Assembly (NCBI GenBank): GCA_965242965.1
Contig: OZ251518.1
Coordinates: 1,504,001 to 1,568,000 of the forward strand
Direction of reading: 5' to 3'
Length of the DNA: 64,000 nt
Source: Candidatus Poribacteria bacterium
Lineage (GTDB): Bacteria; Poribacteria; WGA-4E; WGA-3G
Program-made: the position numbers and the translations under genes
Part shown: positions 1,566 to 57,743 of the stretch, piece after piece
Position numbering within the stretch: position 1 is the first letter of the stretch
How the letters are laid out: the number at the start of each line of letters is the position of its first letter
Notes under the pieces: model-generated
The model's input: only the letters and a program-made list of their open reading frames with translations
Told to the model about the DNA's origin: nothing
Database searches by the model: none

Positions 1566-1621
1566 GTCTTCCTCCGTATCTCCGCATGCGCTGTTGTTGC
1601 ATGCTAGGTTCTTGCGTTAAT

Positions 1622-2193
1622 TGAGGGTGTTTCATAAATCGCTCAACGTCGCGGTGACAGGCCCTTGCTACGGCGAAAAACGCCGCCCCTTTACGTAGGG
1701 CGAGGGCCTGTCCCTCGCCATCGTCCGCGCAATCCAACGATCGCGGGGGACAGGCCCCCGCGCTACGGTAACGGGACGGTTTCTTCACAAAACGGCCCCT
1801 TTCATCGTAGGGCGAGGGCCTGTCCCTCGCCGTGCCCCGGTCTGCGCAGCAACCATCCGGGGTCTCTGGGCTGCGGCCGTTTTCCGCAGCGGTCGAGAGA
1901 TCGCGGGGGACAGGCCCCCGCGCTACGGGTGGAGAACCCCCCTTCACCGTAGGGCGAGGGCCTGTCCCTCGCCATGCACGATCTGAGCATCAAGCATCCG
2001 TGGTACCTGGGCTGCGGGCGTTTTCCGCGGCGGTTGCGAGATCGCGGGGGACAGGCCCCCGCGCTACGGGCGGAGAAAAGCCCCCCTTCACCGTAGGGCG
2101 AGGGCCTGTCCCTCGCCATCGCTCGCGCTACGGGAACATCGAGACCAGGATAGCTCTCCTACCGGGAAGACATCGAGATATGAAACATCCTCA
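1622..2193. mobile_element. MITE-like REP cassette 1 (15-bp TIR, 6-bp TSD GTTAAT)
   Basis: TGAGGGTGTTTCATA at 1622 and TATGAAACATCCTCA ending at 2193; GTTAAT on both flanks (1616-1621, 2194-2199); interior is alternating GTAG hairpins. Confidence 0.8.
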
Positions 2194-5100
2194 GTTAATT
2201 TTTTTCCTATGCGTTGATAGGGTTGCGCCAAGTGCTGCGACTCGGCTTTGAGCCTGTTCAAGAAAAACTTGGTATTTGTCCGCGTCTCTATGCGTTTCGC
2301 GGGTGTGCATATCAAAAGTCAACGGCGCGCCGAAAACTATCCGCACGGGATGCTTTTTTGGCAGATTTTTCCCCTTCGGCAGCGCGCGATAGGTGCCGTC
2401 TATATACGCCGGGATAATCGGCACGTCAGGCGCATAAATCAGCAGACTAAGCACACCCTGTTTGAACGGCTGGAGGTTCCCGTCAAGCGAACGAGTGCCT
2501 TCGGGGAAGACGAGCAGTCCATTGTTTTGCGCCATTACCTCGTTTGCTACGCGCAAATCTTGGAGGAACTCGGTGAAGTTCCCTTCACGTTCGATCGGCA
2601 AAGCGTTGAGACAGGTGCGCGCAAACCAGCCTTGCAGACGGTTGCCGAACCAATAATCGCGCGCCGCAAGTGTCCAGAGCTGATACGCCTTCGGACCGAG
2701 GGCGGTTATCACCGCTAGCGTATCTAAATGACTGGTATGATTCGGCGTGATGATATACGGCTTCCCCTGCGGGATATGCTCCAGCCCGTGGCACTCCAGA
2801 GAGAAATAGTGCTTATAGATGCCGCGGACAATGGCGCGGAAGGCGCGCGCATACCACCGCGGCACCTGCCGAAAATCGAGTGCCTCCACAGGCTCGCGAG
2901 GTTCTGTGCCATTTTCGACATCCGAGGCGTGGAACGTCTGTGTCAATTCAACGACATCGCCGACTGTCTGTAAATTGGCGAGCATCGCGTCGGGGATGGT
3001 GTGGCCGAGGCGCGCCTCAAGCAGAAGCAGCAGATCCAAGCGCATGAGCGAATCTAACCCCAGGTCTGTATCTAAACGGCTTTCTGGGCGAATTTGGTTT
3101 ATGCCGAGGCGCGCCAACCGCGCTAGCGACGTTAAAATTTCTTCCGGAACATCCGCTGAAGGTTCAATTTCGTCATCTGCAGACGCGCTTTCTACGCGGG
3201 CAAGGTGCGCCTGAAGCATCGCCTTGACACGCTGCCTATCCGGAATGCCATCGGCAGTCTTCGGTAGTGCTTCTTCCCACAGATGCGTTTTGTGAAAGTG
3301 TTGATAACTGGGTAGCTGTTTGGCGCGCGCCTGAAGGTGTTGTTGAATTGCCTCTTCGGTTACGCGCGAGGCTGTCTCTGTAGGCACAATCACGGCGTGA
3401 ATGGCGGTATCGCTGCTGTCTTCATAAGGGATGCCGACGACGCACATCTCCGAAATCGCCGAATGATTCCGATAAAGTGCCTCCAATTCAACAGGATACA
3501 CATTTTTGCCGGCGGCCGGGACGATAATATCCTTGCAATGTCCCGTGATATAGAGGTATCCGTCCGCGTCCAGGAACCCCAGGTCTCCCGTATAGAGCCA
3601 TCCATCGCGAATGGATTTCGCCGTAGCGTTCGGATTCTCGTAGTATCCCTTCATCGTGCTGGGGCCTTTGGCGATAATCTCGCCGATGCCGTTGCTGTCA
3701 GGATCGTGGATGTGGAGTTCCACGCCTTCCACCGCCTGTCCGACAGAGCCTCGCTTGCTTTTCAGATACGGATTAACGCTGAGGACCGGGGCGGTTTCTG
3801 TCATTCCATAGCCTTGGTAAAGCGTGAGTCCAAGTGCCTGAAATTCATCGTAGATTGCGTCGGAGAGCGCGGCACCGCCGCTGACAAGCACCCGAATCTC
3901 GCCGCCCATAACGTTGCGTGCCTTCTCAGCCAAAGTTTGCCCCGGCGTTTCTGCCCGCGATGCCTGCCGTTTGATAGTGCTTTGGAGCATCTGAAAGAGG
4001 CGTGGCACGCCGATGAAGGCGGTGATTTTCGCCTCTCGCATCGTCTTGAGGAGCGTAGTCGGACGGAGCGCGTTGACGTAAATCGCCGTGGTGCCGCTAT
4101 AAAGTGCCATCAACAGACTGCACGAGAAACTCAAGGCGTGATACAGCGGGAGCGCGGAGAGGATGCGTTCGTTATCCTTCGGCGGCAGTGCCTTCGCAAC
4201 GGCGCGAACGTTAGAAATAAACCCACCGTGCGTCAACATCGCGCCTTTCGCGTCCACCGTCGTTCCCATCGTGAAAATAATCGAAGCGACGGTATCCGGC
4301 GTAATCTCCACGTTCGGGAAATCGGTAGGCATCTCCGATGTCGTTGTCAGTTCGTTGATGTTCTGCACCTGCGGTTTTGCCGATGCTAATTCGTCGCTGT
4401 ATTTCGCCAAGACGCTATCGGATACCAAAATGGATTTGGCTTCGGTGAATTCAGCGATGGCTAAGATTTCGGATGCCGGCGTTTGCGCGTCAAGTGGGAC
4501 TACTGCCGTACCGAGTTGGACAGCGGCGAGATAGGCGATGCACCACTCCGGCTGGTTCTCCGAAACGAGCAGGGCCCTGTCCCCTTTGCGGAGGCCGCTC
4601 TGCCACAATTGATACGCCGTTTGGCGCGAACGTTCGTAGGTTTCCGCGTAGGTATATTGCTCCCACTCCCCATCGTTTACCATCAGCAGCGCGATGTTGT
4701 TGGGAATGCGCTTTGCCTGTATCTCAACCAAATCGACGATGGTTTTCGGTGAAATCCGCTCGATCGGGTTCTCGGCATCCGTAGGAGAGACATCCCGCTC
4801 TTGATGGCTCCCCCGTGAAATCCTGTCAATGGGGTTTTCGGCATCCGGAGGAACTGTTTCAGTTGTTTCAGTCGATGCTTCCGCTTCATCGTCGGCATCG
4901 GATTGACTCTGTCGCGCCGAGGGAGTTTCACCTGCGGTTGGCTCTTCCAGTTTCAGCACGTGCCGCTTGATGCCGGGAATGTGGATTTCCTGGAAATACT
5001 GCTTCCAGTGGATCTGCGAGACATCAAAGTTAAAGCGTTGCTGTTCAGGCGGGGAGAGTGCCTCCCAGAGTGCCTGCGTTTTCCGCGTCTCGAATTCAAA

Positions 5101-6531
5101 GTTGGTGCGGGTGTAGGGCGCGTAAATACGGATGTAGTGGAGCAGTGCCTTGATACTGCTCTGCTTCACGACAAGTCTGCGGCGGCGGCGTTTTGCGGCG
5201 CGCAACGGCAACCGCGCGAGTGCCTGAATTGCCTTGTCAAGCATCCGCATCCGGCTGTCCAATTTCCGCTGAAATTCCGCTAAACTGGGATACTGCCAGA
5301 CAGGCACCTGAATCGGTTTGCCGTTTTCTAGCATAGGATTTTCGACAAAATAGTCGTAGGTTGCGTCAACGATGCCGCGGAAATAGAGGGGGTTCTGCGT
5401 GCCGGTAGCAACGTGATATACCTCAATCCCGCCGTTCCGCACAGTGGCTTCGGCGGCCGCCAACATGGCGTTCACAACGAAATCAACGGGGATAATATCA
5501 AGGATAATATCCGGTTCTGCCGGAAAATCAGGTAAACGTCCCTTTGCAAAACCGACAATCAGCGGTTCTGACATCCGAAACTTGCCGAGCCATCCCGGCA
5601 CGGGTTCCGCGAGACTGCTCTCAATGATGGAAGGACGGATAATCGCCGTGGGCAGTTCGCCGCGCAATTCTATCACCATCTGTTCGGCGAGGAATTTCAT
5701 GTAGGTATAGGTATCGTTCCACCCGCGCGAACGCGCATGCTTCAACCCTGCCTCTACCAATTCCGCTTCAAGCCATTCGGCTTGTGCCTCGTTAACTCGC
5801 GCTTCAAGTTTCTTGCGGCTGCCCTGTTTATTCTGCTCCGCCTCTCGTTGAAACTGCGCGCGGCGTTCCGGTGAGTCCGCCTCGGCGTGGATTGCCGCGC
5901 TCAAGGCATGCAACTCCTCAACTTCCGCCGAGAGCGTTTGCGGGATGGCAACGCCTGTTTTCTCCTGATGTTGCTTGGCGTAGACTTCATAAGGCGGCGG
6001 GAGCTCCTCCTGCACGCGCCCCGGAGTGTCACCGCAAACATACGCCGTTGAGACATGCAGAAATGCAGCGTTCTGGCAGCCCTTCGCGAAGGTGACGACG
6101 TGCTTGGCGGCCAAAGCGTTGCCCCTTAACGATTCGTCAAACGGCGGATCGAATTGAACAACACCGGCGATGTTAATGAAGAGCTCCACTTCGCCTTGCA
6201 GCCGTTGGTATTCTGCGTCGCCGAGACCGAGGCGTTCGTCCGTGAGCTCGCCTTCAACGGCGAACAACTTCTGCTTCGCCCACGCATCAAAATTTGCGCC
6301 GTGGTGTTGGCGGAGAGACGCAAACACATCCGAGGTTAACAACTCGTTTTCTAACCGTTCTTGTGCCGAGATGCGTCTCCCACTGGCATCGGCGCGGCAT
6401 CGGATGAGCAGATACATTTTATGGACATCGGGAAGCGCGGTCAGAATTTTGGCAACCATCGGCTGACCGAGGAAGGCGGTGCCGCCCGTAATGAAGAGAA
6501 CCTTCCCGCGAAAAAAATCGGCTATTGACAT
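2191..6531 (-). CDS. ElbD-like multidomain lipid enzyme: fatty acyl reductase + adenylation (ACS) + ACP + PlsC-type acyltransferase
   Basis: N-terminal FAR (ITGGTAFLG, WNDTYTYMK, IIPVDFVVNA); AMP-binding (YGMTETAP, LYTGDLG); ACP GLDSL; acyltransferase NHTSHLD and FPEGTRS. Confidence 0.9.
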   Translation of the reverse strand: MSIADFFRGKVLFITGGTAFLGQPMVAKILTALPDVHKMYLLIRCRADASGRRISAQERLENELLTSDVFASLRQHHGANFDAWAKQKLFAVEGELTDERLGLGDAEYQRLQGEVELFINIAGVVQFDPPFDESLRGNALAAKHVVTFAKGCQNAAFLHVSTAYVCGDTPGRVQEELPPPYEVYAKQHQEKTGVAIPQTLSAEVEELHALSAAIHAEADSPERRAQFQREAEQNKQGSRKKLEARVNEAQAEWLEAELVEAGLKHARSRGWNDTYTYMKFLAEQMVIELRGELPTAIIRPSIIESSLAEPVPGWLGKFRMSEPLIVGFAKGRLPDFPAEPDIILDIIPVDFVVNAMLAAAEATVRNGGIEVYHVATGTQNPLYFRGIVDATYDYFVENPMLENGKPIQVPVWQYPSLAEFQRKLDSRMRMLDKAIQALARLPLRAAKRRRRRLVVKQSSIKALLHYIRIYAPYTRTNFEFETRKTQALWEALSPPEQQRFNFDVSQIHWKQYFQEIHIPGIKRHVLKLEEPTAGETPSARQSQSDADDEAEASTETTETVPPDAENPIDRISRGSHQERDVSPTDAENPIERISPKTIVDLVEIQAKRIPNNIALLMVNDGEWEQYTYAETYERSRQTAYQLWQSGLRKGDRALLVSENQPEWCIAYLAAVQLGTAVVPLDAQTPASEILAIAEFTEAKSILVSDSVLAKYSDELASAKPQVQNINELTTTSEMPTDFPNVEITPDTVASIIFTMGTTVDAKGAMLTHGGFISNVRAVAKALPPKDNERILSALPLYHALSFSCSLLMALYSGTTAIYVNALRPTTLLKTMREAKITAFIGVPRLFQMLQSTIKRQASRAETPGQTLAEKARNVMGGEIRVLVSGGAALSDAIYDEFQALGLTLYQGYGMTETAPVLSVNPYLKSKRGSVGQAVEGVELHIHDPDSNGIGEIIAKGPSTMKGYYENPNATAKSIRDGWLYTGDLGFLDADGYLYITGHCKDIIVPAAGKNVYPVELEALYRNHSAISEMCVVGIPYEDSSDTAIHAVIVPTETASRVTEEAIQQHLQARAKQLPSYQHFHKTHLWEEALPKTADGIPDRQRVKAMLQAHLARVESASADDEIEPSADVPEEILTSLARLARLGINQIRPESRLDTDLGLDSLMRLDLLLLLEARLGHTIPDAMLANLQTVGDVVELTQTFHASDVENGTEPREPVEALDFRQVPRWYARAFRAIVRGIYKHYFSLECHGLEHIPQGKPYIITPNHTSHLDTLAVITALGPKAYQLWTLAARDYWFGNRLQGWFARTCLNALPIEREGNFTEFLQDLRVANEVMAQNNGLLVFPEGTRSLDGNLQPFKQGVLSLLIYAPDVPIIPAYIDGTYRALPKGKNLPKKHPVRIVFGAPLTFDMHTRETHRDADKYQVFLEQAQSRVAALGATLSTHRKKIN

Positions 6532-10771: not shown

Positions 10772-10804
10772 GGAGAATGAAAATGCAAACGCGGGAGACA
10801 GGCA

Positions 10805-11052
10805 GTAGGAGAGACCTCCCGGTTTCGATGCTGCTAGCCCTAACTATACGGTGTGCCTCTCCGAGAGGACAGGCGTGCCTGAGTTTGACCCGTTCGGGTG
10901 CAGGCGCACCCGAACTACAGCGGTGGGCCCGCTGCCTTCCCAGTAGGCGGGACATCCCTGTCCCGATACGAACCACATTGAGACCGGGCGGCAGAAATCG
11001 AGACCAGGAGGTCTCTCCTACGGGGAAGCCATCGAGATATGAAACACCCTCG
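10805..11052. repeat. REP cluster ending in an orphan right TIR
   Basis: Several GTAG hairpins; TATGAAACACCCTCG at 11038-11052; no left TIR visible. Confidence 0.75.
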
Positions 11053-11762: not shown

Positions 11763-12399
11763 AGAGAGTGTTTCATAACTCGTTTTCCCGGTAGGAGAGA
11801 CCTCCCGGTCTCGATGTGAGCGGTGCCCCCGTAGGCACCCTCCCGCTCTCAATATCGTCCGCGCAATCCGACACTCGCGGGGGAAACCCGCTCGGATGCG
11901 CGTGTGGCATCCGAGGGCCCTCGCGCTACGGGAAAAAACGGCACTTCACCGTAGGGCGAGGGCCTGTCCCTCGCCATGCGTTTGGCGGGCAGACCTTCTC
12001 ACCTCTGTAGGTCAGGATCGGGCGATCTTGACCCGTTTGTGATCAGGCGATCACAAACTACAGAGAGGGGAGAACGGAAAAAACGTCTCTTGTTCTCTTC
12101 AGGTCTGTAGGACCTGAATGTCTATAGCACGTGCAGACGCGAAGAATCCTAAGGGCCTTTAGGTCCTTAATGTGTTTTACCGTGCCGCGTGTTTTCTTAT
12201 TAAGGACCTAAAGGACCTTGAAAACGGGCCGACACATGCTGCTATAGACATGTAGGACCTAAAGGACCTAAAACGCCTCGGGACGATAGAGTTCGCGAGG
12301 GACAGGCAACCCCGCCCTACGATAAAAATAATGGCTTCTTTTTATCGAGACCAGGAGGTCTCTCCTACTGGGAAGCCATCGAAATATGAAATACCCTCA
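11763..12399. mobile_element. MITE-like REP cassette 2 (imperfect TSD GTTAATC/ATTAATC)
   Basis: AGAGAGTGTTTCATA ... TATGAAATACCCTCA; mosaic of five or more hairpin types inside. Confidence 0.7.
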
Positions 12400-14199: not shown

Positions 14200-14623
14200 A
14201 GTTCGCGGGGGACAGGCCCCCGCGCTACGGTGCGCGGGCCCCTTTGGCCCGTAGGGCGAGGGCCTGTCCCTCGCCATGCTGCGTTCGCGAGGGAGGTACC
14301 TCGCCAAACAACGTTCGCGGGGGACAGGCCCCCGCGCTACGGGACGCGGGCCCCTTTGTATCGTAGGGCGAGGGCCTGTCCCTCGCCATGCTGCGTTCGC
14401 GAGGGAGGTACCTCGCCAAACAACGATCGCGGGGGACAGGCACCCGCGCTACGGTGCGCGGGCCCCTTTGTATCGTAGGGCTTGGGCCCTCGGATGCCAC
14501 ACGCGCATGCGAGCGGGTTCCCCTCGCCATGCAACGATCGCGAGGGAGGTACCTCGCCAAACAACGATCGCGGGGGACAGGCCCCCGCGCTACGGTACGC
14601 GGGCCCCATCTGTCCCTCGCCAT
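14200..14623. repeat. tandem REP array (about 120-bp higher-order units)
   Basis: Repeated unit GTAGGGCGAGGG...CGAGGGAGGTACCTCGCCAAACAACG...GGGGGACAGGCCCCCGCGCTAC, three copies. Confidence 0.9.
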
Positions 14624-14628: not shown

Positions 14629-16233
14629 TCACTTACCCAATTTATCGAACAACGAATCCTGCATGGGTTTGCCTGTCCACGGATTGGACAAGGCAGGCAG
14701 TTGCAATTGCGCGCGGTTTGCATAGAAGTCCGCCACCGAGAAAAACTGCAACCGCGGATATTCGCTTACCCCCATTTTGAGCGGTGCAAGCGATGCCGCC
14801 TCCCGCAAATCTTTCGGCGAGTTGTGCGGTGTCATCGTGATGAAAATGCCCATCGCCGCGTTCACTTTGTCCATCGTCCAGATGAAACTGGTGACATCGT
14901 TAGGGCCGACGCGCCCACTCTTCACCTGAATGACAATGGCGCGCGAGTCGAAATTGTCGGGCGCGTGCGTCAGCAAGCCGAATCCATCAATGCCGCCATC
15001 GCCGGATTTTTTGGCGTTGGAGGCAAACCCTTTGATAAGCGAGATGGCCCAATCCTGGAACTTATAGCGGCTTTCCAGTGCGAGGCGTTTGGCACTCGCC
15101 AGGTCGGTCGGGGTGCCGGTGATTTTCAGGGGTGCGATGCCCTTGTTCTGTGTGAGGCGTTCGGTGTTGATAATATCTAACGCGCTGGGCAACACATCAA
15201 TGCCGATGACATCGCGGCCGAGGGTGCGTGCAGCTTCAATCGTGGTGCCGCAGCCACAAAACGGATCGAGGACGAGGTCACCGGGTTTAGAGGAGGCGTT
15301 GATGATGCGTTCCAGCAATGCCAGCGGCTTCTGCGTCGGGTAGCCGAGGAATTCTTTGCCGCGGCAAGGCGAAATATCTGCCCACAGGTTATCAACCTGT
15401 TTCCCCTTGTCTTCCTCCATGTAACGAATACGATAGGGTGTCCCGGTTTTGCTAAAATAGACGCGCCCCTCTTGGAAAAGCCGCTCAACGTTTTCCTTCG
15501 TTGTCATCCACCCGCTCGGATATGGATTCTCATACCCGCGCCATTCATAACAGAGATTCGGCCGGGCATCGTGAGCCGGACGACACCAGAATGAGGTTAA
15601 CGCAAAACGTCTCCCTTGTTCGTCAATCTTCGGGTAGCGTTTTTCGGCATCCGGGTCTGGTTCATAACTGCCGTTAAATGCATGCTTGGGCATCGCGTAA
15701 AAGAAGATAGTATCCGTGCTTGCACCGAATTTCTTCGGTTTATGCTGACTGCCTTTTCCACCACCGCCGGTGCGGTGCCAGACAATCTCATTCCTGAAGT
15801 TCGCCGCGCCAAAGACGACATCCATCAGGATTTTGAGATAATGCGATGCAGTTGAATCACAGTGGAGGTAAATCGCACCTGTCGGCTTCAGGATGCGATG
15901 CATCTCCATCAACCGTTCTGCCATGTAACTCGTATAGGCGAGCATCTTGCTGTTGGGAATGAACAACTCAAACCCGGCGATGACTTGCGAAATCGGGTTC
16001 GCAATTGCCGAGGTGAGTCGGGCGACGCGGGCGGTGGCGGCTTCATCCCACCGCCACATATCATCAAACGCTTTGATCTGCGCGTCAATGTTCAGCCCAC
16101 TCTTCTTAAAAGGTGAGCTGTATCGTTCATTAGAATTAAACGGCGGATCGAGACAGATGATGTCAACGGTGTTATCGTCCCACTGTTGCATGACATTGAG
16201 GCAATCGCCGTAATAGAGGGTGTTGCGTTCCAT
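14629..16233 (-). CDS. beta-class N4/N6 DNA methyltransferase fused to a C-terminal Mrr-like endonuclease domain
   Basis: DPPF catalytic motif, YPTQKP, LDPFCGCGTT SAM motif; C-terminal DGGIDG...VIQVKSG. Confidence 0.85.
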   Translation of the reverse strand: MERNTLYYGDCLNVMQQWDDNTVDIICLDPPFNSNERYSSPFKKSGLNIDAQIKAFDDMWRWDEAATARVARLTSAIANPISQVIAGFELFIPNSKMLAYTSYMAERLMEMHRILKPTGAIYLHCDSTASHYLKILMDVVFGAANFRNEIVWHRTGGGGKGSQHKPKKFGASTDTIFFYAMPKHAFNGSYEPDPDAEKRYPKIDEQGRRFALTSFWCRPAHDARPNLCYEWRGYENPYPSGWMTTKENVERLFQEGRVYFSKTGTPYRIRYMEEDKGKQVDNLWADISPCRGKEFLGYPTQKPLALLERIINASSKPGDLVLDPFCGCGTTIEAARTLGRDVIGIDVLPSALDIINTERLTQNKGIAPLKITGTPTDLASAKRLALESRYKFQDWAISLIKGFASNAKKSGDGGIDGFGLLTHAPDNFDSRAIVIQVKSGRVGPNDVTSFIWTMDKVNAAMGIFITMTPHNSPKDLREAASLAPLKMGVSEYPRLQFFSVADFYANRAQLQLPALSNPWTGKPMQDSLFDKLGK

Positions 16234-16294
16234 AGTTTGTCCCAGGTTAGAGTTCCTGTTCTCTAGCAATCTGCAAGAGTTGCCGTAGGTTTAA

Positions 16295-16674
16295 AGAGGG
16301 TGTTTCATAAATCGCTCAACGTCGCGGGGACAGGCCCCCGCGCTACGGTGCGCGGGCCCCTTTGTATCGTAGGGCGAGGGCCTGTCCCTCGCCATGCAAC
16401 GATCGCGGGGGACAGGCCCCCGCGCTACGGTAAAAAACGGCCTCCTTCACCGTAACTGCGGTGAAAAAACGCCGCCCCTTCATCGTAGGGCGAGGGCTTG
16501 TCCCTCGCCATCGTTCGCGCTACGGAAAAACGTCTCTTGTTCTCTTCAGGTCCTAAAAGACCTAAAACGCCACTTCTTGGCGATGGAGCTCGCGGGGGAC
16601 AGGCCCCCGCGCTACGGGAACATCGAAACCCGAGATCTCTCCTACCGAACACATCGAATTATGAAACACTCTCA
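16295..16674. mobile_element. MITE-like REP cassette 3 (TSD GTTTAA)
   Basis: AGAGGGTGTTTCATA ... TATGAAACACTCTCA; GTTTAA on both flanks. Confidence 0.8.
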
Positions 16675-21962: not shown

Positions 21963-22647
21963 TGAGGGTGTTTCATAAATCGATGCGTTCGGTAGGAGAG
22001 ACCTCGGGTCTCGATTCCCTCGTAGGAGAGACCTCCTGGTCTCGATGTTCCCGTAGCGCGGGGGCCTGTCCCCCGCGATCGTTGCATGGCGAGGGACAGG
22101 CCCTCGCCCTACGGTGAGGGGAGCGTTTTTTATCGTAGCGCGGGGGCCTGTCCCCCGCGAGCGTTGGATTGCGCGAGCGATGGCGAGGGAAACCCTCTCG
22201 CCTGCGCGTGCGGCATCCGAGGGCCCAAGCCCTACGTTAAGAGGGGCCGTTCTGGATACCGTAGCGCGGGGGCCTGTCCCCCGCGATTATCGTCCCGATG
22301 TGTGTTTCCGCCTCTGTAGTTTGTGATCGCCTGATCACAAACGGGTCAGGATCAGGCGATCCTGACCTACAGAACTTACAGGGCCTGGTGCACGAACGAT
22401 GGCGAGGGACAGGCCCTCGCCCTACGATGAAGGGGGCGTTATTTTCCCCGTAGCGCGGGGGCCAGACCCCCGCGATCGTTGGATTGCACGAGCAATGGCG
22501 AGGGACAGGCCCTCGCCCTACGATGAAGGGGGATTTTTGCCGCCGCGCCGCCCTATTGCATCGAGACCAGGAGGTCTCTCCTACGGGGAAAATTGAGACC
22601 AGGAGGTTTCTCCTACGGGGAAACCATTGATATACGAAACACCCTCA
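21963..22647. mobile_element. MITE-like REP cassette 4 (TIR pair, flanks not duplicated)
   Basis: TGAGGGTGTTTCATA ... TACGAAACACCCTCA; flanks ATTGAT and GGTTAA differ. Confidence 0.65.
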
Positions 22648-34108: not shown

Positions 34109-34760
34109 GTAGGAGAGACCTCCTGGTCTCGATGCAAGATTCTTGCTGTCCCCTGCCCTACGAGTTATTTGGCGATCGGTGCATGGCGAGGGACAGGCCC
34201 TCGCCCTACGAGTTGTTACGAGTTGTTTGGTGATCGGTGCATGGCGAGGGACAGGCCCGCGCCCTACGATATCGGGCATTTGGTGATCGGTGCATGGCGA
34301 GGGACAGGCCCTCGCCCTACGATATTCGGGGAGAGGCTATCCACCCTGAACAGCGCGGATAATTTCTACCTCGCTGTTTTCGTCAATCTTCTTCTGATGC
34401 CACGCCGCTTGCGGGACGACTTCCCGATTCACCGCGACAGCGATGCCCGGTTGCTTCGGCTCAAGCCCTATTTCAAGCAGCAGTTCGTAGAGGGTTAACT
34501 CGGCATTGACATTCTTGTCTTCGCCGTTAATGCGTATTTTCATTGTTATGGGCTGCGTTCCATTTCCTCGTAGGGCGAGGGCCTGTCCCTCGCCATGCAA
34601 CGATCGCGGGGGAAACCCGCTCGGATGCGCGTATGGCATCCGAGGGCCCCCGCGCTACGGTGAAAGAGAACCGTCCGCGGACCCCGTAGGGCGAGGGACA
34701 GGCCCTCGCCATGCAACGATCGCCAAACGACTCGTAGGGCGAGGGCCTGTCCCTCGCGAT
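34109..34760. repeat. REP clusters flanking thiS (34109-34320, 34569-34760)
   Basis: Three tandem GATCGGTGCATGGCGAGGGACAGGCCC(T/G)CGCCCTAC units, plus further copies. Confidence 0.85.
34337..34543 (-). CDS. thiS: sulfur carrier protein ThiS
   Basis: MKIRINGE...IAVAVNREVVP...VEIIRAVQGG, with C-terminal GG. Confidence 0.95.
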   Translation of the reverse strand: MKIRINGEDKNVNAELTLYELLLEIGLEPKQPGIAVAVNREVVPQAAWHQKKIDENSEVEIIRAVQGG

Positions 34761-36016: not shown

Positions 36017-36287
36017 TGAGGGTGTTTCATAACTCAAGAAACCGTCCGGTTACCGTAGCGCGGGGGCCTGTCCCCCGCGAGCGTCCCCTAGTCCACCTCT
36101 GTAGTTCGGGATCGCCTGATCCCGAACGGGTCAGGATCAGGCGATCCTGACCTACAGGGGTGACGCGGTCTGACAGCCGAACGCGTGGCGAGGGACAGGC
36201 CCTCGCCCTACGTGAAGGGGCGGCGTTTTCTTCACCGGCGCGCGGGGACTGGCACCGCGACGTGGAGCGAGTTATGAAACACCCTCA
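36017..36287. mobile_element. MITE-like REP cassette 5 (perfect TIRs; TCTATA on both flanks, offset 2 nt on the left)
   Basis: TGAGGGTGTTTCATA ... TATGAAACACCCTCA. Confidence 0.75.
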
Positions 36288-38274: not shown

Positions 38275-38462
38275 AGAAAAAGCCGCCTCCTGTTTCTACC
38301 TGCGAGGAAAAGGAGACGGCGTGAGATGTGCAATAAGGGATGCCATGGCAGTGGGAGATACCTCCCGGTTTCAATGCCTTCCCATATTGCTGCAAATCAG
38401 TTTTCTGTCGTTCGCAATGCGTTGTTCAGTAACTGCAAGGATAACGCTTGCGCTGTCCAGAA

Positions 38463-38548
38463 ATTTCCCTACGCTGGCATAACCCAGATCAGGTTCAAAG
38501 GGTGTTTTCTCAGCTCTTTGTAGGCGTGAACCTAAATTGAGCACCCCA
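38463..38548 (-). ncRNA. TPP riboswitch
   Basis: GGGGTGC...GCTGAGAAAACACCCTTTGAACCTGATCTGGGTTATGCCAGCGTAGGGAA, upstream of the thiamine genes. Confidence 0.95.
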
Positions 38549-38628
38549 TAATGTCATTGAAAAAATTATATCATAATTTCCAAAATAGTTGCAACAAATT
38601 TTTTTACGGTAGAAACCGCCGTGATACC

Positions 38629-38867
38629 GTAGCGCGGGGGCCTGTCCCCCGCGATGCCCCAGTTTCATCCGAGCATGGCGAGGGACAGGCCCTCGCCCTA
38701 CGGTATAAATAACCGTCTACGGTGGAAACCGCCGCGATACCGTAGCGCGGGGGCCTGTCCCCCGCGATGCCCCGGCTTATCCAAGTCTGGCGATGGACAG
38801 GCCCTCGCCCTACGGTGGAAATAACAAACCGCCCCGATACCGTAGCGCGGGGGCCTGTCCCCCGCGA
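38629..38867. repeat. tandem REP doublets
   Basis: Three GATACCGTAGCGCGGGGGCCTGTCCCCCGCGATGCC copies interleaved with inverted A-type hairpins. Confidence 0.9.
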
Positions 38868-38879
38868 TGCCTCTAATCT

Positions 38880-40029: not shown

Positions 40030-40294
40030 TGAAGGTGTTTCATAAATCGCTTAGCGGGGCGGGGACAGGCCCCGCGCTTCGGTGAAAAAAACGCCTTCCC
40101 TTCAAGTAGGGCGAGGGACAGGCCCTCGCCATGCGTTTGGCTGTCAGACCGCATCACCTTTGTAGGTCAGGATCGCCTGATCCTGACCCGTTCGGGATCG
40201 GGCGATCCCGAACTACAGAGGGGGCAGATACCTGCCGGTAGTCGCCCGCCTCCATGGGCGATAACTACCGAAACGGATTTATGAAACACCCTCA
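40030..40294. mobile_element. MITE-like REP cassette 6 (TSD CTAATT)
   Basis: TGAAGGTGTTTCATA ... TATGAAACACCCTCA; CTAATT on both flanks. Confidence 0.8.
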
Positions 40295-41496: not shown

Positions 41497-41975
41497 GTAG
41501 TGCAGGATCGCCTGATCCTGCCCGGTTTGAGATCAGGCGATCTCAAACTACAGAGATGGGAGGACTGATACCCGTTTGAGATCCGGCGATCTCAAACTAC
41601 AGAGGTGGCGAGGGACAGGCCCTCGCCCTACGGTGAAGCGGAGGCGGCCTTGACAACCGTAGCGCGGGGGCCTGTCCCCCGCGATGCCGCTAGTTGTCTG
41701 AATCAGGATTTACAAGATTATAGGATTTGCCGGATTATCTTCTTTGAGTTCTACGATAACGGAAACGCCTCGGGCACGGCGAGTGACAGGTCCAGGCGAT
41801 TCCGTTCTCCTATTCTATAGTTCGGGAGCACCCGCTCCCGAACGGGTCAAGAGAAGACACGCCTGCCCGAGAGAATAAGCCCACCGCTGTAGTTTGTGCG
41901 TGGTTGAAGGTCTGGCAGCATCAAGACAAGGAGGTCTCTCCTACAGGGAAGACATTGAGTTATGAAACACCCTCA
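41497..41975. repeat. REP cluster ending in an orphan right TIR
   Basis: Hairpin variants GTTTGAGATC/GATCTCAAAC; TATGAAACACCCTCA at 41961-41975. Confidence 0.8.
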
Positions 41976-43032: not shown

Positions 43033-43176
43033 AACGCTTATGCCACGGTACCGTAGGAGAGACCTCCTGGTCTTGATGCAATACCGTAGGCGCGCCCGCC
43101 CGGTCTCTCCTACTGGGAAGACATTGAGATATGAAATACCCTCAGATGAAATAGGATGGCCGCAGAAAATGAACCC

Positions 43177-49100: not shown

Positions 49101-49271
49101 GGTTGATGACTCCTTTGGATGCGCGTTGGGCGGATAGAGACATCCGCCCTGACAAAGTTGCTGCGCTGGGTGGCGATAGACAATCGTCCTGGCAATTGGC
49201 TCGGGTTTCGACAGTTACGGAAATCCGGCTTGATGCCTGGGGCGTTGTTTTGCGCGCCGCCCGCGCGGTTG

Positions 49272-51095
49272 CTAAAAGAGGGTTTTCAGATACTCAATGA
49301 CTTCGGCTCCGAGCGTCGTCAAGATGAGCGTAGATGTCACGGTGGCAAGCATTCCGAGGAGGAGTTTCCAAGGGCTCAGGGCTCCCCTGAGTTCGGCGAA
49401 TTCCTGTCGGGCTTTTTCGTTATCCTCAAAGAGTTTGTCAAACTTCTTGTCGAATTCCTCGTGACGCTTGGCATTTTCCTGCACGAATGCCTGAAACAGT
49501 GCTTCGTTACGCGCGTGGCTTTCGCGAAGTTTTGCCATTTCTCGTTCAGCGTTTTCGCGGAGCACTGCGTATGCCTGATCGGCTTTCTCGCGGTCTTGCT
49601 CGGTTTTCTCAAATCGCCGGTTAAATGCCGCGTCTCGTTCGGCATTCTCTTTGGCGTTTGCTTCGATGAGTGCCTTGGTTCGCGCGTGGCTTTCGGCAAA
49701 TTGCCGGAGTTGCCTGTCAATGTCTGTGCTGCGCGCTGCTTCCTGTTTTACGCGTTCCGCATCGTGTTGCGTCAGTGCCTCCACCGTCGCTTCCAAGCGT
49801 GTGAGGTTTTCACTGTGCTTGGCCTGTTCGCCGATTTGCTGTTCAACTCGTGCGTCGCGTTCGGCATTCTCCTTGGCAAGTGCTTCCCAGAGCGCGTCGG
49901 TTCGCGCCTGGTTTTCGGCAAGTTGCTGGAATTGCCTGTCAATGGCGGCATCTCGCGCTGCCTGCTGTTTTGCGCGTTCGGCATCACGTTGTGTAAGTGC
50001 CTCCACCGCCGCTTCCAAGCGTGTGAGGTTTTCACTGTGCTTGGCCTGTTCGTCGGTTTGCCGGTCAACTCGTGCGTCTCGTTCGGCATTCTCCTTGGCA
50101 AGTGCTTCCCAGAGCGCGTCGGTTCGCGCCTGGTTTTCAGCGAGTTGCCGGAGTTGCTTGTCAATGGCTGCGCTGCGCGCTGCTTCCTGTTTTGCGCGTT
50201 CGGCATCGCGCTGGGCAGCTGCTTCCAAGAGAGCGTCAGTTCGTGCTTGACTTTCTCGGATTTTCGCCATTTCTCGTTCGGCGTTTTCGCGGAGAGCTGC
50301 GTATGCCTGATTGGCTTTCTCGCGGTCTTCTCCAAGTTTATCAAGTCGGCTGTCAATGGCTGCATCTCGCGCTGCCTGCTGTTTGGCACGTTCGGCATCG
50401 TGTTGCGTCAGTGCCTCCACCGCCGCTTCCAAGCGTGTGAGGTTCTCATTGTGCTTGGCCTGTTCGTCGGTTTGCTGTTCAACTCGTGCGTCTCGTTCGG
50501 CGTTCTCCTTGGCAAGTGCTTCCCAGAGCGCGTCAGTTCGTGCTTGGTTTTCAGCAAGTTGCCGGATTTGCCGATCAATCGCTGCGCTGCGCGCTGCTTC
50601 CTGTTTATCTCGTTCTGCCTCGCGCGTGGCGAGTGTTTCGACGAGTGCGTCGGTTCGCGCCTGGTTTTCAGCGAGTTGCCGGAGTTGCCGGTTAAGTGCC
50701 GTGTCTCGGGCTTCTTGCTGTTTATCTCGTTCTGCCTCGCGCGTGGCGAGTGTTTCGACGAGTGCGTCGGTTCGCGTCTGGTTTTCGACGAGTTGCTGGA
50801 GTTGCCGGTTAAGTGCTGCGTCTCGTTCTGTCTCGCGATTAGTGAGTGCTTCAAAGAGGCCCGCTTGACTTTCACGGAGTTCTTCAACGGTTCGCTCTTG
50901 GCTCTTGGAAAGGGTGCCAATAACTTGGACGATTTGCCCTAGCTGCTGCACAACCACCTGAGCCTTCTGATCGCTTTTCACGTAGTTTTCTGAGAGGGCA
51001 GCGGCGTTCGCAGCAAGTTGCTCCAAAAAGCCTTCTACCCGTTCAACCTGCTCCTCAAGTGTGTTGTTCTGCTCAACGTTAACTGTATCCATCAT
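49272..51095 (-). CDS. long internally repetitive coiled-coil protein with C-terminal TM anchor
   Basis: Nested repeats (RQLAENQARTDAL; AKHSENLTRLEAAVEALTQ); AGGAGA RBS; TM 'LLLGMLATVTSTLILTTLG'. Confidence 0.8.
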   Translation of the reverse strand: MMDTVNVEQNNTLEEQVERVEGFLEQLAANAAALSENYVKSDQKAQVVVQQLGQIVQVIGTLSKSQERTVEELRESQAGLFEALTNRETERDAALNRQLQQLVENQTRTDALVETLATREAERDKQQEARDTALNRQLRQLAENQARTDALVETLATREAERDKQEAARSAAIDRQIRQLAENQARTDALWEALAKENAERDARVEQQTDEQAKHNENLTRLEAAVEALTQHDAERAKQQAARDAAIDSRLDKLGEDREKANQAYAALRENAEREMAKIRESQARTDALLEAAAQRDAERAKQEAARSAAIDKQLRQLAENQARTDALWEALAKENAERDARVDRQTDEQAKHSENLTRLEAAVEALTQRDAERAKQQAARDAAIDRQFQQLAENQARTDALWEALAKENAERDARVEQQIGEQAKHSENLTRLEATVEALTQHDAERVKQEAARSTDIDRQLRQFAESHARTKALIEANAKENAERDAAFNRRFEKTEQDREKADQAYAVLRENAEREMAKLRESHARNEALFQAFVQENAKRHEEFDKKFDKLFEDNEKARQEFAELRGALSPWKLLLGMLATVTSTLILTTLGAEVIEYLKTLF

Positions 51096-51158: not shown

Positions 51159-51479
51159 TGAGGGTGTTTCATAAATCGCTGTAGGAGAGACCTCCCGGTC
51201 TCGATGCAATAGGGCGGTGCACCTACCGGGGCAGCGGCGGCAGAAAGTCCCCCTTCATCGTAGGGCGAGGGCCTGTCCCTCGCCATCGCTCGCGCGCCGG
51301 GTCCTGTAGTTCGGGATCGCCTGATCCCGAACCGTTTGTGATCAGGCGATCACAAACTACAGAGAGGGAAACACACATCGTGACGATGGAGATCGCGGGG
51401 GACAGGCCCCCGCGCTACGGGAACATCAAGACCAGGAGGTCTCTCCTACGGTATTGCATCGAAATATGAAACACCCTCA
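51159..51479. mobile_element. MITE-like REP cassette 7 (perfect TIRs, TSD GTTAAA)
   Basis: TGAGGGTGTTTCATA ... TATGAAACACCCTCA; GTTAAA on both flanks. Confidence 0.85.
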
Positions 51480-51510
51480 GTTAAATGACTCGTTTGAACT
51501 TTCCAACGTA

Positions 51511-52974: not shown

Positions 52975-52984
52975 GGAGGACACT

Positions 52985-54057: not shown

Positions 54058-54268
54058 CGTAGGGCGCGGGCCTGTCCCGCGCCATCGTGCAACTCTCAAA
54101 AGAATCGTAGGGCGCGGGCCTGTCCCGCGCCATCATGCAATTCTGGTCAGCATTCGAGACCGGGAGGTCTCTCCTACTGTTCGTCAGCACCCGTAGGGCG
54201 CGGGCCTGTCCTGCGCCATCGTCCAACTCTCAAAAGAATCGTAAGGCGTGGGCCTGTCCCCCGCCATC
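54058..54268. repeat. tandem REP variant GTAGGGCGCGGGCCTGTCCCGCGCC
   Basis: Four copies with duplicated spacers (CAACTCTCAAAAGAATC). Confidence 0.85.
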
Positions 54269-54289
54269 GTCCAACACTCGGAAAAATAA

Positions 54290-55453
54290 ATGCCCATTTT
54301 TCTTTTCGGCATAGATTCAGGCGGCATTGGCATCGCCGACCGGATTAGCTGGATGTGGGGCTCCGATGCGTATCAGAGTCTCCTCGTCATCGCGTGCCTC
54401 GCCGCTGGCGGGTGGCTCATCCGATACGCCGCTCGGCGTGAATACTGGCGGAACGCGGCAAGACAAATCCGCAGCAACCGTCTCGCGCTCGTCTGCCTCG
54501 GTATTCTCACCCTCTATGTGCTGATTGGCGTGTTGGATAGTATCATCTGGCGCGACCCGGTTGTCGGCAAAGATGGCACGCTGACACGAAACGAAAGCGG
54601 CAGCGTCGTTTACAGACCGCGGGGGTTGAGCATTTTGGACAGACTCTGCACACCGCTTCGGGAAAGGACAGAGAGAACCTATTCTGCCCCTTTCGCCACG
54701 CATCTGTATGCGAAAAGCACCTCACCGGAAACCGGCAGACGGGAATATCCATCGCTGAACCATCCCCGAAGCCATTGGCTTGGCACGGACAAAGTCGGAA
54801 ACGATGTCCTCTATCGCGCGCTGAAAGGCATCCGCACCGGGCTAATTATCGGCGGATTTACGACGCTGATCGCCGTGCCGTTTGCGATTTTATTCGGTGT
54901 CGCCGCCGGTTACTTCGGCGGCTGGGTAGACGATGGCGTGCAATACCTCTACTCAACGCTCGCCTCTATTCCCAGTATCCTGCTCATCGTCGCCTTCATG
55001 TTGATATTCGGACAAGGACTCTTCAACCTCTGTCTCATCATGGGGATTAGCAGTTGGACAGGTTTGTGCCGCATCTTGCGCGGCGAGACGTTGAAACTCC
55101 GTGAATTGGAATATGTCCAAGCCGCCGAGGCGTTCGGTGTCAACCGCGCTGCGATTATCCTGAAGCATCTCATTCCCAACCTGATGCACATCGTGCTTAT
55201 CTCCGCCATTTTGCGATTTAGCAGCTTGGTGCTGACAGAGGCACTGCTGAGTTATCTCCAAATCGGTGTGGAACCGACGACAGGGAGTTGGGGTAATATG
55301 ATTAACACAGCGCGTTTGGAACTCGCCCGCGACCCGATTGTGTGGTGGAATTTAGCGGCGGCGTTCACGTTTATGTTTGGATTAGTGTTGCCCGCGAATC
55401 TATTTGGCGATGCTGTCCGTGATGCCTTGGACCCGAGACTGCGGACAGAGTAA
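54290..55453 (+). CDS. peptide/nickel ABC permease (OppC/DppC family)
   Basis: HWLGTDKVGNDV, EYVQAAEAFG, KHLIPN, SWGNMI, GDAVRDALDPR. Confidence 0.92.
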   Translation: MPIFLFGIDSGGIGIADRISWMWGSDAYQSLLVIACLAAGGWLIRYAARREYWRNAARQIRSNRLALVCLGILTLYVLIGVLDSIIWRDPVVGKDGTLTRNESGSVVYRPRGLSILDRLCTPLRERTERTYSAPFATHLYAKSTSPETGRREYPSLNHPRSHWLGTDKVGNDVLYRALKGIRTGLIIGGFTTLIAVPFAILFGVAAGYFGGWVDDGVQYLYSTLASIPSILLIVAFMLIFGQGLFNLCLIMGISSWTGLCRILRGETLKLRELEYVQAAEAFGVNRAAIILKHLIPNLMHIVLISAILRFSSLVLTEALLSYLQIGVEPTTGSWGNMINTARLELARDPIVWWNLAAAFTFMFGLVLPANLFGDAVRDALDPRLRTE

Positions 55454-55465
55454 TCCTCAATTCAA

Positions 55466-56848
55466 TGAGGGTGTTTCATAACTCGCTCAACGTCGCGGTG
55501 ACAGTCCCCCGCGCTGCGGTGAAAAATGGGGAATTGCCGGTAGGAGAGACCTCCTAGTCTCGATTTCTTCCGGTAGGAGAGACCTCGGGTCTCGATGTTC
55601 CCGTAGCGCGGGGGCCTGTCCCCCGCGAGCGTTGGGCCCCATTCTGTAGGTCAAGATCGCCTGATCTTGACCCGTTCGGGATCAGGCGATCCCGAACTAC
55701 TTTTATAGGGTCCGGGCATGGCGAGGGACAGGCCCCCGCCCTACGGTGAGGGGGACTGTTTTTTCCCGTAGCGCGGGGGCCTGTCCCCGAGATCGCAGCA
55801 TGGCGAGGGACAGGCCCTCGCCCTACGATGAAGGGGGACCTTCTAGTGCCGCGGCCCGGTAGGCGCGCCGCCCTATTGCATCGAGACCGGGAGGTCTCGC
55901 CTACGGGGACATCGCTCGCATCGAGACCGGGAGGTCTCTCCTACCGGGGAAACGGAATCGTTCGGGATTTCGCTAAACCATTTTTACAAAACGTTGATAG
56001 GAGGCGGAGAAGTGATTGGGAAAAACGTTGTCATAGCGGTGCTGCTTTCTTGTCTAATGCTGGCAGTCGTGCTAATCGGTTGCGGTGAAGATGCCGATGA
56101 ACCGTCTGCGGAAGACCTGGTCGGCACATGGGAACCCGTTGTGCATAGTGACGAAACGCCGAACGACGCGGTCCAGTTGACTGAGGTTGTTTTTGGTGCC
56201 GATAGCGCATTGTTCTGGAAAGTCCACGTGAAAGGGGAAGAGGATGGCATTGCTTTCAAGATTGATGTGACGATGAAAGGCACTTATGTTGTGTCGGGCT
56301 TGAGTTTGACATTCGTGGGTAAATCTGTGGAGACAAAAGCGGATTTTACTTTCCCACCGCCAGCTGAAGAAATTGAATCCGAAGTGCTTATTGGGCTTAC
56401 TAGAGAGTTGTCCAATCAGGCGAGGACAGATCTTGAACAAGACTTTGAATCAGAAAACTGGAATGGCACATGGCGTTTGGCAGGAGACATCCTCACCTTA
56501 ACTCGCGATGATGGCACCGAGATTGTCTTGAGAAGAAAATAAATTGGCTCTCGGCGGTGGTTAAAAACGAACAACGGGCATCGCTGCCCGTTGTCCACCG
56601 TCGCCCTCGCCCCACGGGAAAAAACGGCACTTCCCCGTAGGGCGAGGGCCCTCGGATGCCACACGCGCATCCGAGCGGGTTCCCCTCGCCATCGTCCGCG
56701 CGCCAGGCCCTGTAGGTCAGAATCGCCTGATCCTGACCCGTTCGGGAGCGGGCGCTCCCGAACTACAGAGATGGGCCCGATGCCTGCCGGTATTCGCCCG
56801 CCTTCCAAGGCGGGATAACTACCGAAACGGAGTTATGAAACACCCTCA
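55466..56848. mobile_element. TIR pair enclosing REP arms and a lipoprotein gene (possible cargo-carrying cassette)
   Basis: Left TIR at 55466, next right TIR ending at 56848; flanks ATTCAA and AATAAC do not match. Confidence 0.45.
56012..56542 (+). CDS. lipocalin-like lipoprotein
   Basis: AGGAGG RBS, lipobox LIGC, 'LVGTWE', 'GTWRLAGDILTL'. Confidence 0.7.
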   Translation: MIGKNVVIAVLLSCLMLAVVLIGCGEDADEPSAEDLVGTWEPVVHSDETPNDAVQLTEVVFGADSALFWKVHVKGEEDGIAFKIDVTMKGTYVVSGLSLTFVGKSVETKADFTFPPPAEEIESEVLIGLTRELSNQARTDLEQDFESENWNGTWRLAGDILTLTRDDGTEIVLRRK

Positions 56849-56943
56849 AATAACGTAGTGCGGGGGCCTGTCCCCCGCATGCCTCAACTGTTCCGAATAG
56901 CGTAGTGCGGGGGCCTGTCCCCCGCAGGGCCCAGAATCAGTCT

Positions 56944-57399
56944 TTACTCGTATTCCTTGAGGAACCCGACAAACTCGCGCCGGTGCTTTTCCTCATCGGC
57001 GAGGAGCCGGATGCAGAGGTCTTGCGTGACGTAGTCAATGCCATCGCACAACCGAATAATTTTGTTATACTGATCGATTGCGAGGTTTTCGGCTTTGATA
57101 ACACCGTGGATAGTCGTCACAAGATCGGTGGAATCTTCCGGCGGCTGAAGCGATGCCTGTTCCGGTTTAAAGGCGAACGAGCCCGGAACCCGACCGCCGA
57201 GCTCCTTCACACGATTTGCCAACTCCTGGGCATGCGTTAATTCCACTTGGATGTCTGTCGCGAGAGATTTTTTGATCTCCTCGGCGCGAATGCCATCCAA
57301 ATCGACAGAAATCGCCAAGTAGTTAATCGTGGCTTCCAACTCTAGCCAATAAGCACACGTTAACTCTTTGATGATAATGTCCGTTTTTTCCTGAGTCAT
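56944..57399 (-). CDS. ferritin-like diiron protein (bacterioferritin/Dps/rubrerythrin superfamily)
   Basis: ELEATINY, ELTHAQELANRVKELGG, AENLAIDQY, DEEKHR; GAGGAG RBS. Confidence 0.88.
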   Translation of the reverse strand: MTQEKTDIIIKELTCAYWLELEATINYLAISVDLDGIRAEEIKKSLATDIQVELTHAQELANRVKELGGRVPGSFAFKPEQASLQPPEDSTDLVTTIHGVIKAENLAIDQYNKIIRLCDGIDYVTQDLCIRLLADEEKHRREFVGFLKEYE

Positions 57400-57423
57400 G
57401 ATGTATCTCCTCTTGTAGGTTAA

Positions 57424-57711
57424 TGAGGGTGTTTCATCTGCCATCGTCCCGATGTGTGTTTCCCCTTCTGTAGTTTGTGATCGCCTGATCACAAACGGGT
57501 CAGGATCAGGCGATCCTGAACTACAGAGTCTGGCGCGCGGACGCTGGCGAGGGCCTGTCCCTCGCCCTACGGGGAAGTGCCGTTTTTTCCGTAGCGCGGG
57601 GGCCTGTCCCCCGCGATCGTTGGATTGCGCGGACGATATTGAGACAGGGAGGGCTCTCCTACTGCATTGAGATAGGGAGGACTCTCCTAACAGATTTATG
57701 AAACATCCTCA
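57424..57711. mobile_element. MITE-like REP cassette 8 (TSD GGTTAA)
   Basis: TGAGGGTGTTTCATC ... TATGAAACATCCTCA; GGTTAA on both flanks. Confidence 0.8.
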
Positions 57712-57743
57712 GGTTAATAAACTTCAATTTCAATACGTTTAAT

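Follow-up and report, generated by a model that had tools for sequence, protein, structure and literature searches.

How did one short terminal sequence come to enclose so many different collections of repetitive hairpins in a single bacterial chromosome? The question is raised by a window of 64,000 nucleotides (C1:1504001-1568000) in the two-contig, 5.70-Mb genome of a Candidatus Poribacteria bacterium, which we take to be a sponge symbiont. Eight cassettes in this window are bounded by terminal inverted repeats (TIRs) and filled with GTAG-headed hairpins of the repetitive extragenic palindrome (REP) type. A preliminary description of the window proposed a non-autonomous shell, mobilised by a DDE transposase, that spreads REPs or is preferentially colonised by them, and so couples two mobility chemistries, that of the DDE enzyme and that of the REP-associated tyrosine transposases (RAYTs). 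Our analysis makes it quite likely that the cassettes are MITEs (miniature inverted-repeat transposable elements) derived from a 1.1-kb Poribacteria insertion sequence (IS), that they carry REPs as cargo and that their mosaics were formed mainly by later turnover in place.

All 16 ends of the eight cassettes were found at the positions given for them. Allowing two mismatches, the 15-base TIR TGAGGGTGTTTCATA matches the window 22 times against 0.08 expected, a number reached in none of 100 shuffles. The six ends beyond the eight pairs are all solo, with a REP array only on their inner side. At the same threshold, the scan of the whole genome gave 983 ends, of which 450 match perfectly, 377 differ at one position and 156 at two. 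The conserved end is longer than 15 bp; its consensus extends over about 18–22 bp and is common to all copies, as in a MITE. When a pair is defined as a plus end followed by a minus end as the next end, at a spacing below 1 kb, the genome has 283 complete pairs and 417 solo ends, that is, about 700 sites in all, with more solo ends than complete elements. The median pair length of 391 bp is small, again as in MITEs. All cassettes are intergenic, often directly adjoining stop codons, and the space between or beside the ends is occupied by GC-rich hairpins with a GTAG head.

Target-site duplications (TSDs) are far more frequent than chance would allow. A perfect 6-bp TSD flanks 75 of the 283 pairs, compared with 1.5 expected in a control that dealt the right flanks to other elements and in this way retained the AT-rich target bias. 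This disposes of the objection that the duplications might merely reflect AT-rich, TTAA-like targets. A further 32 pairs have a perfect 7-bp TSD, flanking 6-mers with one mismatch are seen at 36 pairs (13 expected), and 176 pairs have no perfect duplication. The five perfect 6-bp TSDs first read in the window (GTTAAT, GTTTAA, CTAATT, GTTAAA and GGTTAA) are correct. Of the other three cassettes, the one at 11763-12399 has flanks that agree in 6 of 7 positions, the one at 36017-36287 has a TCTATA displaced by 2 bp, and the one at 21963-22647 has no match. The duplicated site reads n-T-T-A-A-n with A favoured one base outside, so that the target is a palindrome, A-nTTAAn-T. TSDs are equally frequent in mosaics longer than 500 bp (25 of 73) and in elements of up to 300 bp (40 of 102), which argues that the long mosaics are single elements and not chance neighbours.

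We could also identify an autonomous partner. A pattern search for the TIR ends among 40 relatives returned two genomes of another genus with ends about 1,109 bp apart. The IS in one of them (G022) is 1,109 bp long, has the same ends as the cassettes and a TSD GATAAT, and contains a single open reading frame (ORF) of 332 aa. This ORF matches Pfam DDE_Tnp_1_3 (PF13612) with 39.3 bits (cut-off 27), and it scores 55.2 bits against the NCBIfam IS982 equivalog NF033520, well under the cut-off of 130. The residues D150, D213 and E269, invariant in six homologues of 40–48% identity, are the putative catalytic DDE triad, judging from their position within the Pfam match. Scanning species-representative genomes, we found 79 related loci, nearly all from Candidatus Poribacteria and a few from Chloroflexota. 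At 27 of the 79 a TIR pair 1,108–1,139 bp apart surrounds the ORF, and at 14 of these 27 we read a perfect AT-rich TSD of 6 or 7 bp in the flanks. Public records leave the homologues unnamed or list them as 'hypothetical protein'; the IS probably belongs to a distinct clade, as yet unnamed, that occurs in Poribacteria and Chloroflexota. The cassettes are thus non-autonomous and DDE-mobilised, as had been proposed, and the DDE IS with their ends (DDE_Tnp_1_3, IS982-like) is intact only in other Poribacteria genera. Four IS copies in one Poribacteria metagenome-assembled genome (L038–L041) have swapped 6-bp flanks, the right flank of one being the left flank of another, which is the signature of inversion or recombination between IS copies.

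These data also bear on the idea that the ends belong to a tyrosine (HUH) 'TIRtron/TIRYT' system, in which REPs and ends would be handled by one chemistry and no DDE enzyme would be involved. RAYT-like genes flanked by long TIRs, as well as TIR families, have been described (Di Nocera et al. 2013, PMC3733652). However, HUH/Y1 transposition leaves no duplication of fixed length (PMC2817692), whereas the elements have TSDs of 6–7 bp, and at 27 loci of related genomes an ORF with a DDE domain lies between these ends and TSDs. The RAYT gene of this genome, moreover, has E-type REP arrays on both sides and no TIR end within about 4 kb. A tyrosine-based origin of the ends therefore appears extremely improbable.

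In the genome of the window itself, no transposase was found between any TIR pair, including four longer TSD-flanked pairs. These four, with ends 900–3,500 bp apart, had been candidates for an autonomous copy; their ORFs proved to be an ankyrin/dockerin-like protein and a methylase-Mrr fusion. Long multi-copy repeats of the genome were considered as well and rejected, as they are LTD, WD40, TPR and type ISP restriction genes. A tblastn search with three transposases recovered only a decayed remnant, two transposase fragments with a stop (C1:2371353-2371663), located behind one end at C1:2371353-2371747. The first 138 bp or so of the IS are retained at seven loci, and about 15 bases of its subterminal sequence beyond the TIR are kept in 37 cassette ends, which links the cassettes to the IS by descent.

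Some of the rejected genes are duplicated in their own right. The fusion of an N6/N4 DNA methylase with an Mrr-type nuclease has paralogues at window positions 14629-16269 (minus strand) and at C1:3389913-3391499, and one paralogue sits between two TIR ends with a near TSD. Paralogues of 85–93% identity exist for the type ISP restriction enzyme (six) and the lamin-tail-domain protein (about ten).

Empty sites were found in relatives, as the preliminary description had anticipated. A public run of a close strain (X5), whose contigs diverge from the window by about 4%, bridges two cassettes: 40004 is linked to 40293 with 18 letters between (cassette 40030-40294), and 51161 to 51495 with 7 letters between (cassette 51159-51479). 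Within 1 bp, and allowing for 2–3 bases that fit either side, both joints correspond to the loss of the cassette and one TSD copy. In two congeners, G001 and G002, with genes 80–90% identical to those of the window, the sites of seven cassettes could be read in one or both genomes and none had a TIR-bounded element; for the eighth cassette, 11763-12399, the flanking sequence could be located in neither genome. The spacers of the congeners are mostly too diverged for exact single 6-mers and hold other REPs at several sites, and empty sites are readable only for 57424-57711 (GGTTAC, G001) and 51159-51479 (a length match, G002). Contigs of the runs X1, X8 and X11 end or continue differently at the cassette borders and are uninformative on presence. 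When metagenomes were scanned with an 18-mer taken from beside 40030-40294, 27 loci came up, none of them orthologous. Within the genome, a cassette with the TSD CTTAAC splits a REP doublet of which more than 200 unsplit copies exist.

It could be argued that the host keeps the cassettes as functional spacers (terminators, mRNA stabilisers or sites for nucleoid proteins) and that TIRs and TSDs are a historical accident. The intergenic position of all cassettes, often abutting stop codons, would agree with this, and REPs elsewhere have been reported to act as terminators or binding sites (PMC2817692, PMC3733652). However, presence and absence vary between congeners and even with respect to a strain of 96% identity, and the interiors are not conserved. 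Retention for such a function thus seems very unlikely to account for the cassettes.

We next consider the cargo. By their stem patterns the hairpins fall into families A to F (1,840, 2,256, 1,692, 799, 570 and 398 copies, respectively), altogether 7,555 in 2,085 arrays, which cover 393 kb or about 7% of the genome. They are short, GC-rich, extragenic palindromes of high copy number with a GTAG head, and so agree with the definition of REPs. The same families fill the interiors of the cassettes, so the preliminary identification of the cargo as GTAG REPs was right. A REP lies within 150 bp inward of 872 of the 983 ends and outward of only 83, which argues that the REPs are part of the elements and not mere neighbours.

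Clustering of the 283 pairs by full-length similarity produced families of 53, 6, 5 and 3 members, seven families of two and 202 singletons. The earlier view of the interiors as mosaics rather than copies of one element goes too far: 81 elements belong to multi-copy families, and the core family among these has a fixed sequence. Forty members of this largest family could be aligned to a 269-bp consensus. In it, a TIR is followed by an inverted B-like REP, then by an A REP and, after a linker, by an F-E' REP doublet; a GTAG-headed hairpin arm and the second TIR complete it. Two window cassettes, 36017-36287 and 40030-40294, belong to this core family and lie in opposite orientation. Since the core copies (40–53) occupy different sites with different TSDs, REP-bearing cassettes must have transposed as units. 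With four REPs in each of the 40 aligned copies, at least 160 REPs have moved inside DDE cassettes.

The core family also bears on a second possibility, namely that near-empty TIR shells came first and were preferred by RAYT-driven REP insertion, all cargo being acquired after insertion. A reason might be that hairpins of single-stranded DNA are extruded from a long inverted repeat. Several observations are in line with this idea: in most arm classes the REPs start 4–12 bp past the 18–22-bp TIR, 202 of the 283 interiors are one-offs, small hairpins do enter REP loops that already exist (321 copies, of which 76 lie in pairs), and the strongest association with TIRs is that of the E and F REPs, which are the types around the RAYT gene (46–64% within 300–600 bp of an end). 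However, members of the core family at different sites share four REPs in identical order, so that their cargo was aboard before the jumps. No REP-free shell was seen among the ends, 872 of 983 having a REP within 150 bp inward, and the same arrays and tandem units occur in TIR-less spacers (1,378 of 2,085 arrays), with no evident preference beyond that for any spacer. Colonisation as the only source of the cargo is therefore improbable.

REPs and TIR ends are independent in origin, as becomes clear when their numbers are compared between genomes. In this comparison the genome of the window has 827 TIR ends with up to one mismatch, about 1,800 REP-A and 1,565 REP-C copies. In G001 there are 8 such ends, 454 REP-A and 43 REP-C copies, and in G002, also of the same genus, a single end, 175 REP-A and 219 REP-C copies. 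The IS carrier G022 has 15 ends and neither REP-A nor REP-C, and REP-A, the sole family checked there, was not found in G024 and G019. A count of TIRs within 150 bp of the 2,085 arrays in the genome of the window gave none for 1,378 arrays, one for 511 and two for 194. The presence of REPs in TIR-less spacers, and in congeners with 8 ends or one, argues that the shell is unnecessary for REP spread. The cassettes contain only 12–27% of each REP family, and 26–64% lie within 300–600 bp of a TIR end.

Two matches to Y1_Tnp (PF01797) were found in the genome, and one is an intact RAYT gene (47.5 bits, cut-off 23) whose ORF has an HLH motif and a YCYQ tyrosine region. This single RAYT may drive REP gain, and the same search revealed no RAYT of their own for the families A–D. 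The second match is an IS200/IS605-type tnpA interrupted by two TGA codons, beside an intact 408-aa TnpB-like ORF (C1:3123891-3127127). A functional coupling of the two mobility chemistries is not supported; ordinary turnover of REP arrays in old cassettes explains the mosaics more simply.

The orientation of the REPs added little. A comparison with the replication strand, intended to separate cargo brought in by a cassette from cargo gained in place, was uninformative: in the genome of the window no family has such a strand bias, and the cumulative GC skew is almost monotonic, with no clear origin or terminus. The C-type REPs of G002 form long runs of a single orientation that switch along the chromosome. 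For the REPs within cassettes, orientation calls with three mismatches are unreliable because the stems are palindromic, and from these only the count of distinct architectures was used.

Taken together, a MITE origin suggests the following course of events. A DDE transposase (332 aa, DDE_Tnp_1_3, distantly IS982-like) would recognise the 18–22-bp ends TGAGGGTGTTTCATAAAT and cut A-nTTAAn-T targets with a stagger of 6 or 7 bp. In this lineage the IS would have been reduced to its ends, its interior being replaced by GTAG REP hairpins of families that are older in the genus. Anything between two ends could then be moved by the transposase, presumably by cut-and-paste, which would have brought REP-laden cassettes to about 700 sites. 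The mosaics would have diversified mainly after insertion, by the turnover that also shapes the other REP arrays of the genome. Possible routes are tandem duplication of REP doublets, insertion of small hairpins into REP loops, and recombination or deletion between REPs that removes one TIR. Such turnover in place is the likely cause of the differences between mosaics.

Traces that would fit each of these routes can be seen in the window. Tandem REP-doublet units occur in cassettes or solo arrays (1796-2119 and 58711-58929) as well as in TIR-less arrays (14201-14488, 34159-34325 and 38605-38871). A GC-rich hairpin of about 33 bp is nested in the loops of A- and B-type REPs, for example at 56640-56695. 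It has 321 copies in the genome, at least 197 of them in recognisable A or B hosts and 76 inside TIR pairs, and adds a third nesting layer. As for the loss of ends, the outer target signature is alike in paired and solo ends (T 73–76%, T 62–66%, A 74–76% and A 59–62%, with A at position -7 in 53–54%), and the solo ends are thus genuine insertion ends that have lost their counterpart. We also considered that the 417 solo ends might be pairs with a degenerate partner. A search for partners with three or four mismatches gave only about 25 more candidates inward than outward, so that this explanation was rejected for most of them, and most are truly one-ended. A variant end, GGACGGTGTTTCATAAC, lacks the nTTAAn flank and is a fixed linker between B- and E-type REPs in a tandemly repeated composite unit. 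This class has about 23 ends (C1:189252, 1355991, 1787948, 2729094, 2796519 and others); in it, a piece of the TIR has come to serve as a linker inside a repeated REP unit.

Several observations weigh against this account of MITEs remodelled in place. The core copies are only 87% alike (median; 91% for the nearest neighbour), and the nearest siblings of the eight window cassettes reach no more than about 72–83% over most of the length. Two cassettes are nevertheless missing from the 96% identical strain. This would need either cut-and-paste of old copies or fast REP evolution. The single copy of the TSD in that strain was deduced from contig coordinates and not from letters. A single RAYT faces six or more REP families, and with the NF033520 score below its cut-off the assignment of the partner to an IS family is loose. 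Finally, we found no case of the same insertion in two genomes with a differing interior. One site is shared, C1:3012250-3012736 in the genome of the window and C102:11325-12189 in G001, both at GTTAAT. However, the arms that adjoin the TIRs differ too, and a perfect target may have been hit twice, independently.

Bacterial MITEs with which the cassettes can be compared include Correia/IS630 and RUP, named in PMC2817692, and MITEAba12, which is of DDE-IS origin (PMC6382973). The cassettes resemble MITEs of DDE IS in being short and non-coding, in having the ends of an autonomous IS and a TSD length set by the parent transposase, and in their intergenic position, presence/absence polymorphism and many copies. 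They differ in that only the 18–22-bp ends (plus about 15 bp in 37 ends) are IS-derived. The whole interior belongs to another class of mobile repeat, 202 of 283 copies are unique mosaics instead of near-identical copies, and solo ends exceed complete elements. The partner IS, in turn, is like the IS982 family in its size of about 1.1 kb, its single ORF, its putative DDE triad and a Pfam match above cut-off, and unlike it in remaining under the NF033520 cut-off (55 against 130 bits). TSDs of the IS982 family are 3–9 bp long, a range that includes the short AT-rich TSD of the partner.

The hairpins themselves have much in common with the REP sequences, bacterial interspersed mosaic elements (BIMEs) and REP doublets forming hairpins (REPINs) that are associated with RAYTs (Nunvar et al. 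2010, PMC2817692; Bertels and Rainey, 'Curiosities of REPINs and RAYTs', PMC3337134). As there, GC-rich hairpins of 20–30 bp with a GTAG head occur in thousands. The doublets, the tandem mosaic arrays and the one RAYT embedded in its own REP type are likewise those of REPtrons. Unlike in REPtrons, about a quarter to two-thirds of each REP family lie within 300–600 bp of a DDE transposon end, and one RAYT serves as the only one for six or more families.

A precedent comes from Di Nocera et al. 2013 (PMC3733652), who mention, for Anabaena variabilis, dimers of the GTAG-15 REP enclosed by long palindromes and, for Halothiobacillus neapolitanus, CGTC-1 dimers within palindromes of 41 bp. In the passages of that paper on these dimers, the palindrome is read as an insertion target, and TSDs, an autonomous IS and mobility are not analysed. 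There, too, REP dimers are regularly bracketed and REP-free palindromes were not found, just as we saw no REP-free shells. In the cassettes, by contrast, the bracket is the end of a DDE transposon, as TSDs and empty sites show, and what it encloses is long and variable. The preliminary remark that no description of the arrangement was known is qualified by the Anabaena dimers, a similar arrangement in print.

Another known association is that of IS which target REPs (IS1397, ISKpn1, ISPpu9/10). These insert into REPs, so that the REP is outside the element. Physical association of IS and REP is common to both situations, and one MITE here does lie inside a REP doublet. The cassettes differ in having the REPs inside and in targeting nTTAAn, with a REP on the outside at only 83 of 983 ends. 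Our literature search revealed no paper on REPs or MITEs in Poribacteria, none on DDE MITEs with REP cargo and none that combines IS982 with MITE and TSD. A search by terms within Delihas 2011 (PMC3184786) returned no passage on REP-carrying MITEs.

Returning to the window, the individual cassettes illustrate the range of interiors. The first (1622-2193, 572 bp, TSD GTTAAT) is filled with REP doublets of the A/B type, in which a 141-bp unit recurs 2.3 times; in G001 and G002 the genes that flank it are separated by gaps of 51 bp and 46 bp, respectively, without the cassette. The cassette at 11763-12399 (637 bp) has the near TSD GTTAATC/ATTAATC, and that at 16295-16674 (380 bp) the TSD GTTTAA; the site of the latter in G001 is a 122-bp gap with no TIR. 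The richest REP mosaic of the window, at 21963-22647 (685 bp), has no TSD (ATTGAT and GGTTAA), and different REPs with no TIR are present at its site in G001 and G002. Of the two copies of the 269-bp core MITE, the one at 36017-36287 is inverted relative to the other and has no exact TSD (TCTATA with an offset of 2 bp). The copy at 40030-40294 has the TSD CTAATT, is made up of a TIR, a B'-A REP pair, an F-E' REP pair, the GTAG-headed hairpin arm and a TIR, and is absent in G001 and G002. The last two are 51159-51479 (321 bp, TSD GTTAAA), also absent in both congeners, and 57424-57711 (288 bp, TSD GGTTAA), for which the matching point in G001 has one GGTTAC and no TIR.

The six solo ends have their REP arrays on the inner side. 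Three of those on the minus strand are 11038-11052, with an array that extends to the stop codon of the upstream gene (10790-11052 in total), 41961-41975 (41497-41975) and 43130-43144, where the array is short (43050-43144). A left end on the plus strand opens the feature at 55466-55990, whose far arm keeps IS-derived subterminal sequence with the second TIR cut off. It is followed by a right end on the minus strand at 56834-56848 (feature 56600-56848), in which one REP has a nested loop hairpin, and by a left end on the plus strand (58616-59030) with a 112-bp unit present twice (96% match). We considered 55466-56848 as a single gene-carrying cassette and rejected this, since it has no TSD and G002 has the gene there without TIRs; it is thus two solo ends. 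The gene between them, a small lipocalin-like lipoprotein gene (55994-56542, plus strand), is deleted in G001, and its presence in G002 argues that it is ancestral and not cargo.

A few other features of the window are recorded here. In an Rfam search of the window the REP hairpins matched no family, and the sole match was a thiamine pyrophosphate (TPP) riboswitch at 38449-38559 on the minus strand (RF00059, 61 bits, gathering score 54.3). Long overlapping ORFs of 607 aa each on both strands occupy 49119-51095; they have no Pfam match and hold tandem repeats of 222 bp and 117 bp with 2.6 copies each.

What, then, does the DDE shell mean for the spread of REPs? It is possible, though we consider it rather doubtful, that the REPs owe their several-fold amplification in this lineage chiefly to the shell and that many TIR-less arrays are cassettes that have lost both ends. 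If so, RAYT-less REP families would have multiplied beyond the levels of the congeners by riding on a borrowed DDE transposase, and the dispersal usually ascribed to RAYTs would have been the work of a cut-and-paste DDE enzyme. The spread of REPs and mosaic arrays is still argued mainly from genome patterns, with little direct support for RAYT-driven movement. The genome studied here and its congeners, which have the same REPs and almost no cassettes, offer a natural comparison between hitch-hiking and RAYT-driven dispersal. The arrangement is that of two known kinds of selfish DNA travelling together, which is unusual and not fundamentally new. It illustrates how far a MITE can be reduced, namely to two 20-bp ends that enclose arbitrary and fast-changing cargo. 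Repeat annotation that expects MITEs of fixed sequence will overlook such elements, and in Poribacteria they account for much of the intergenic DNA and for assembly breaks there.

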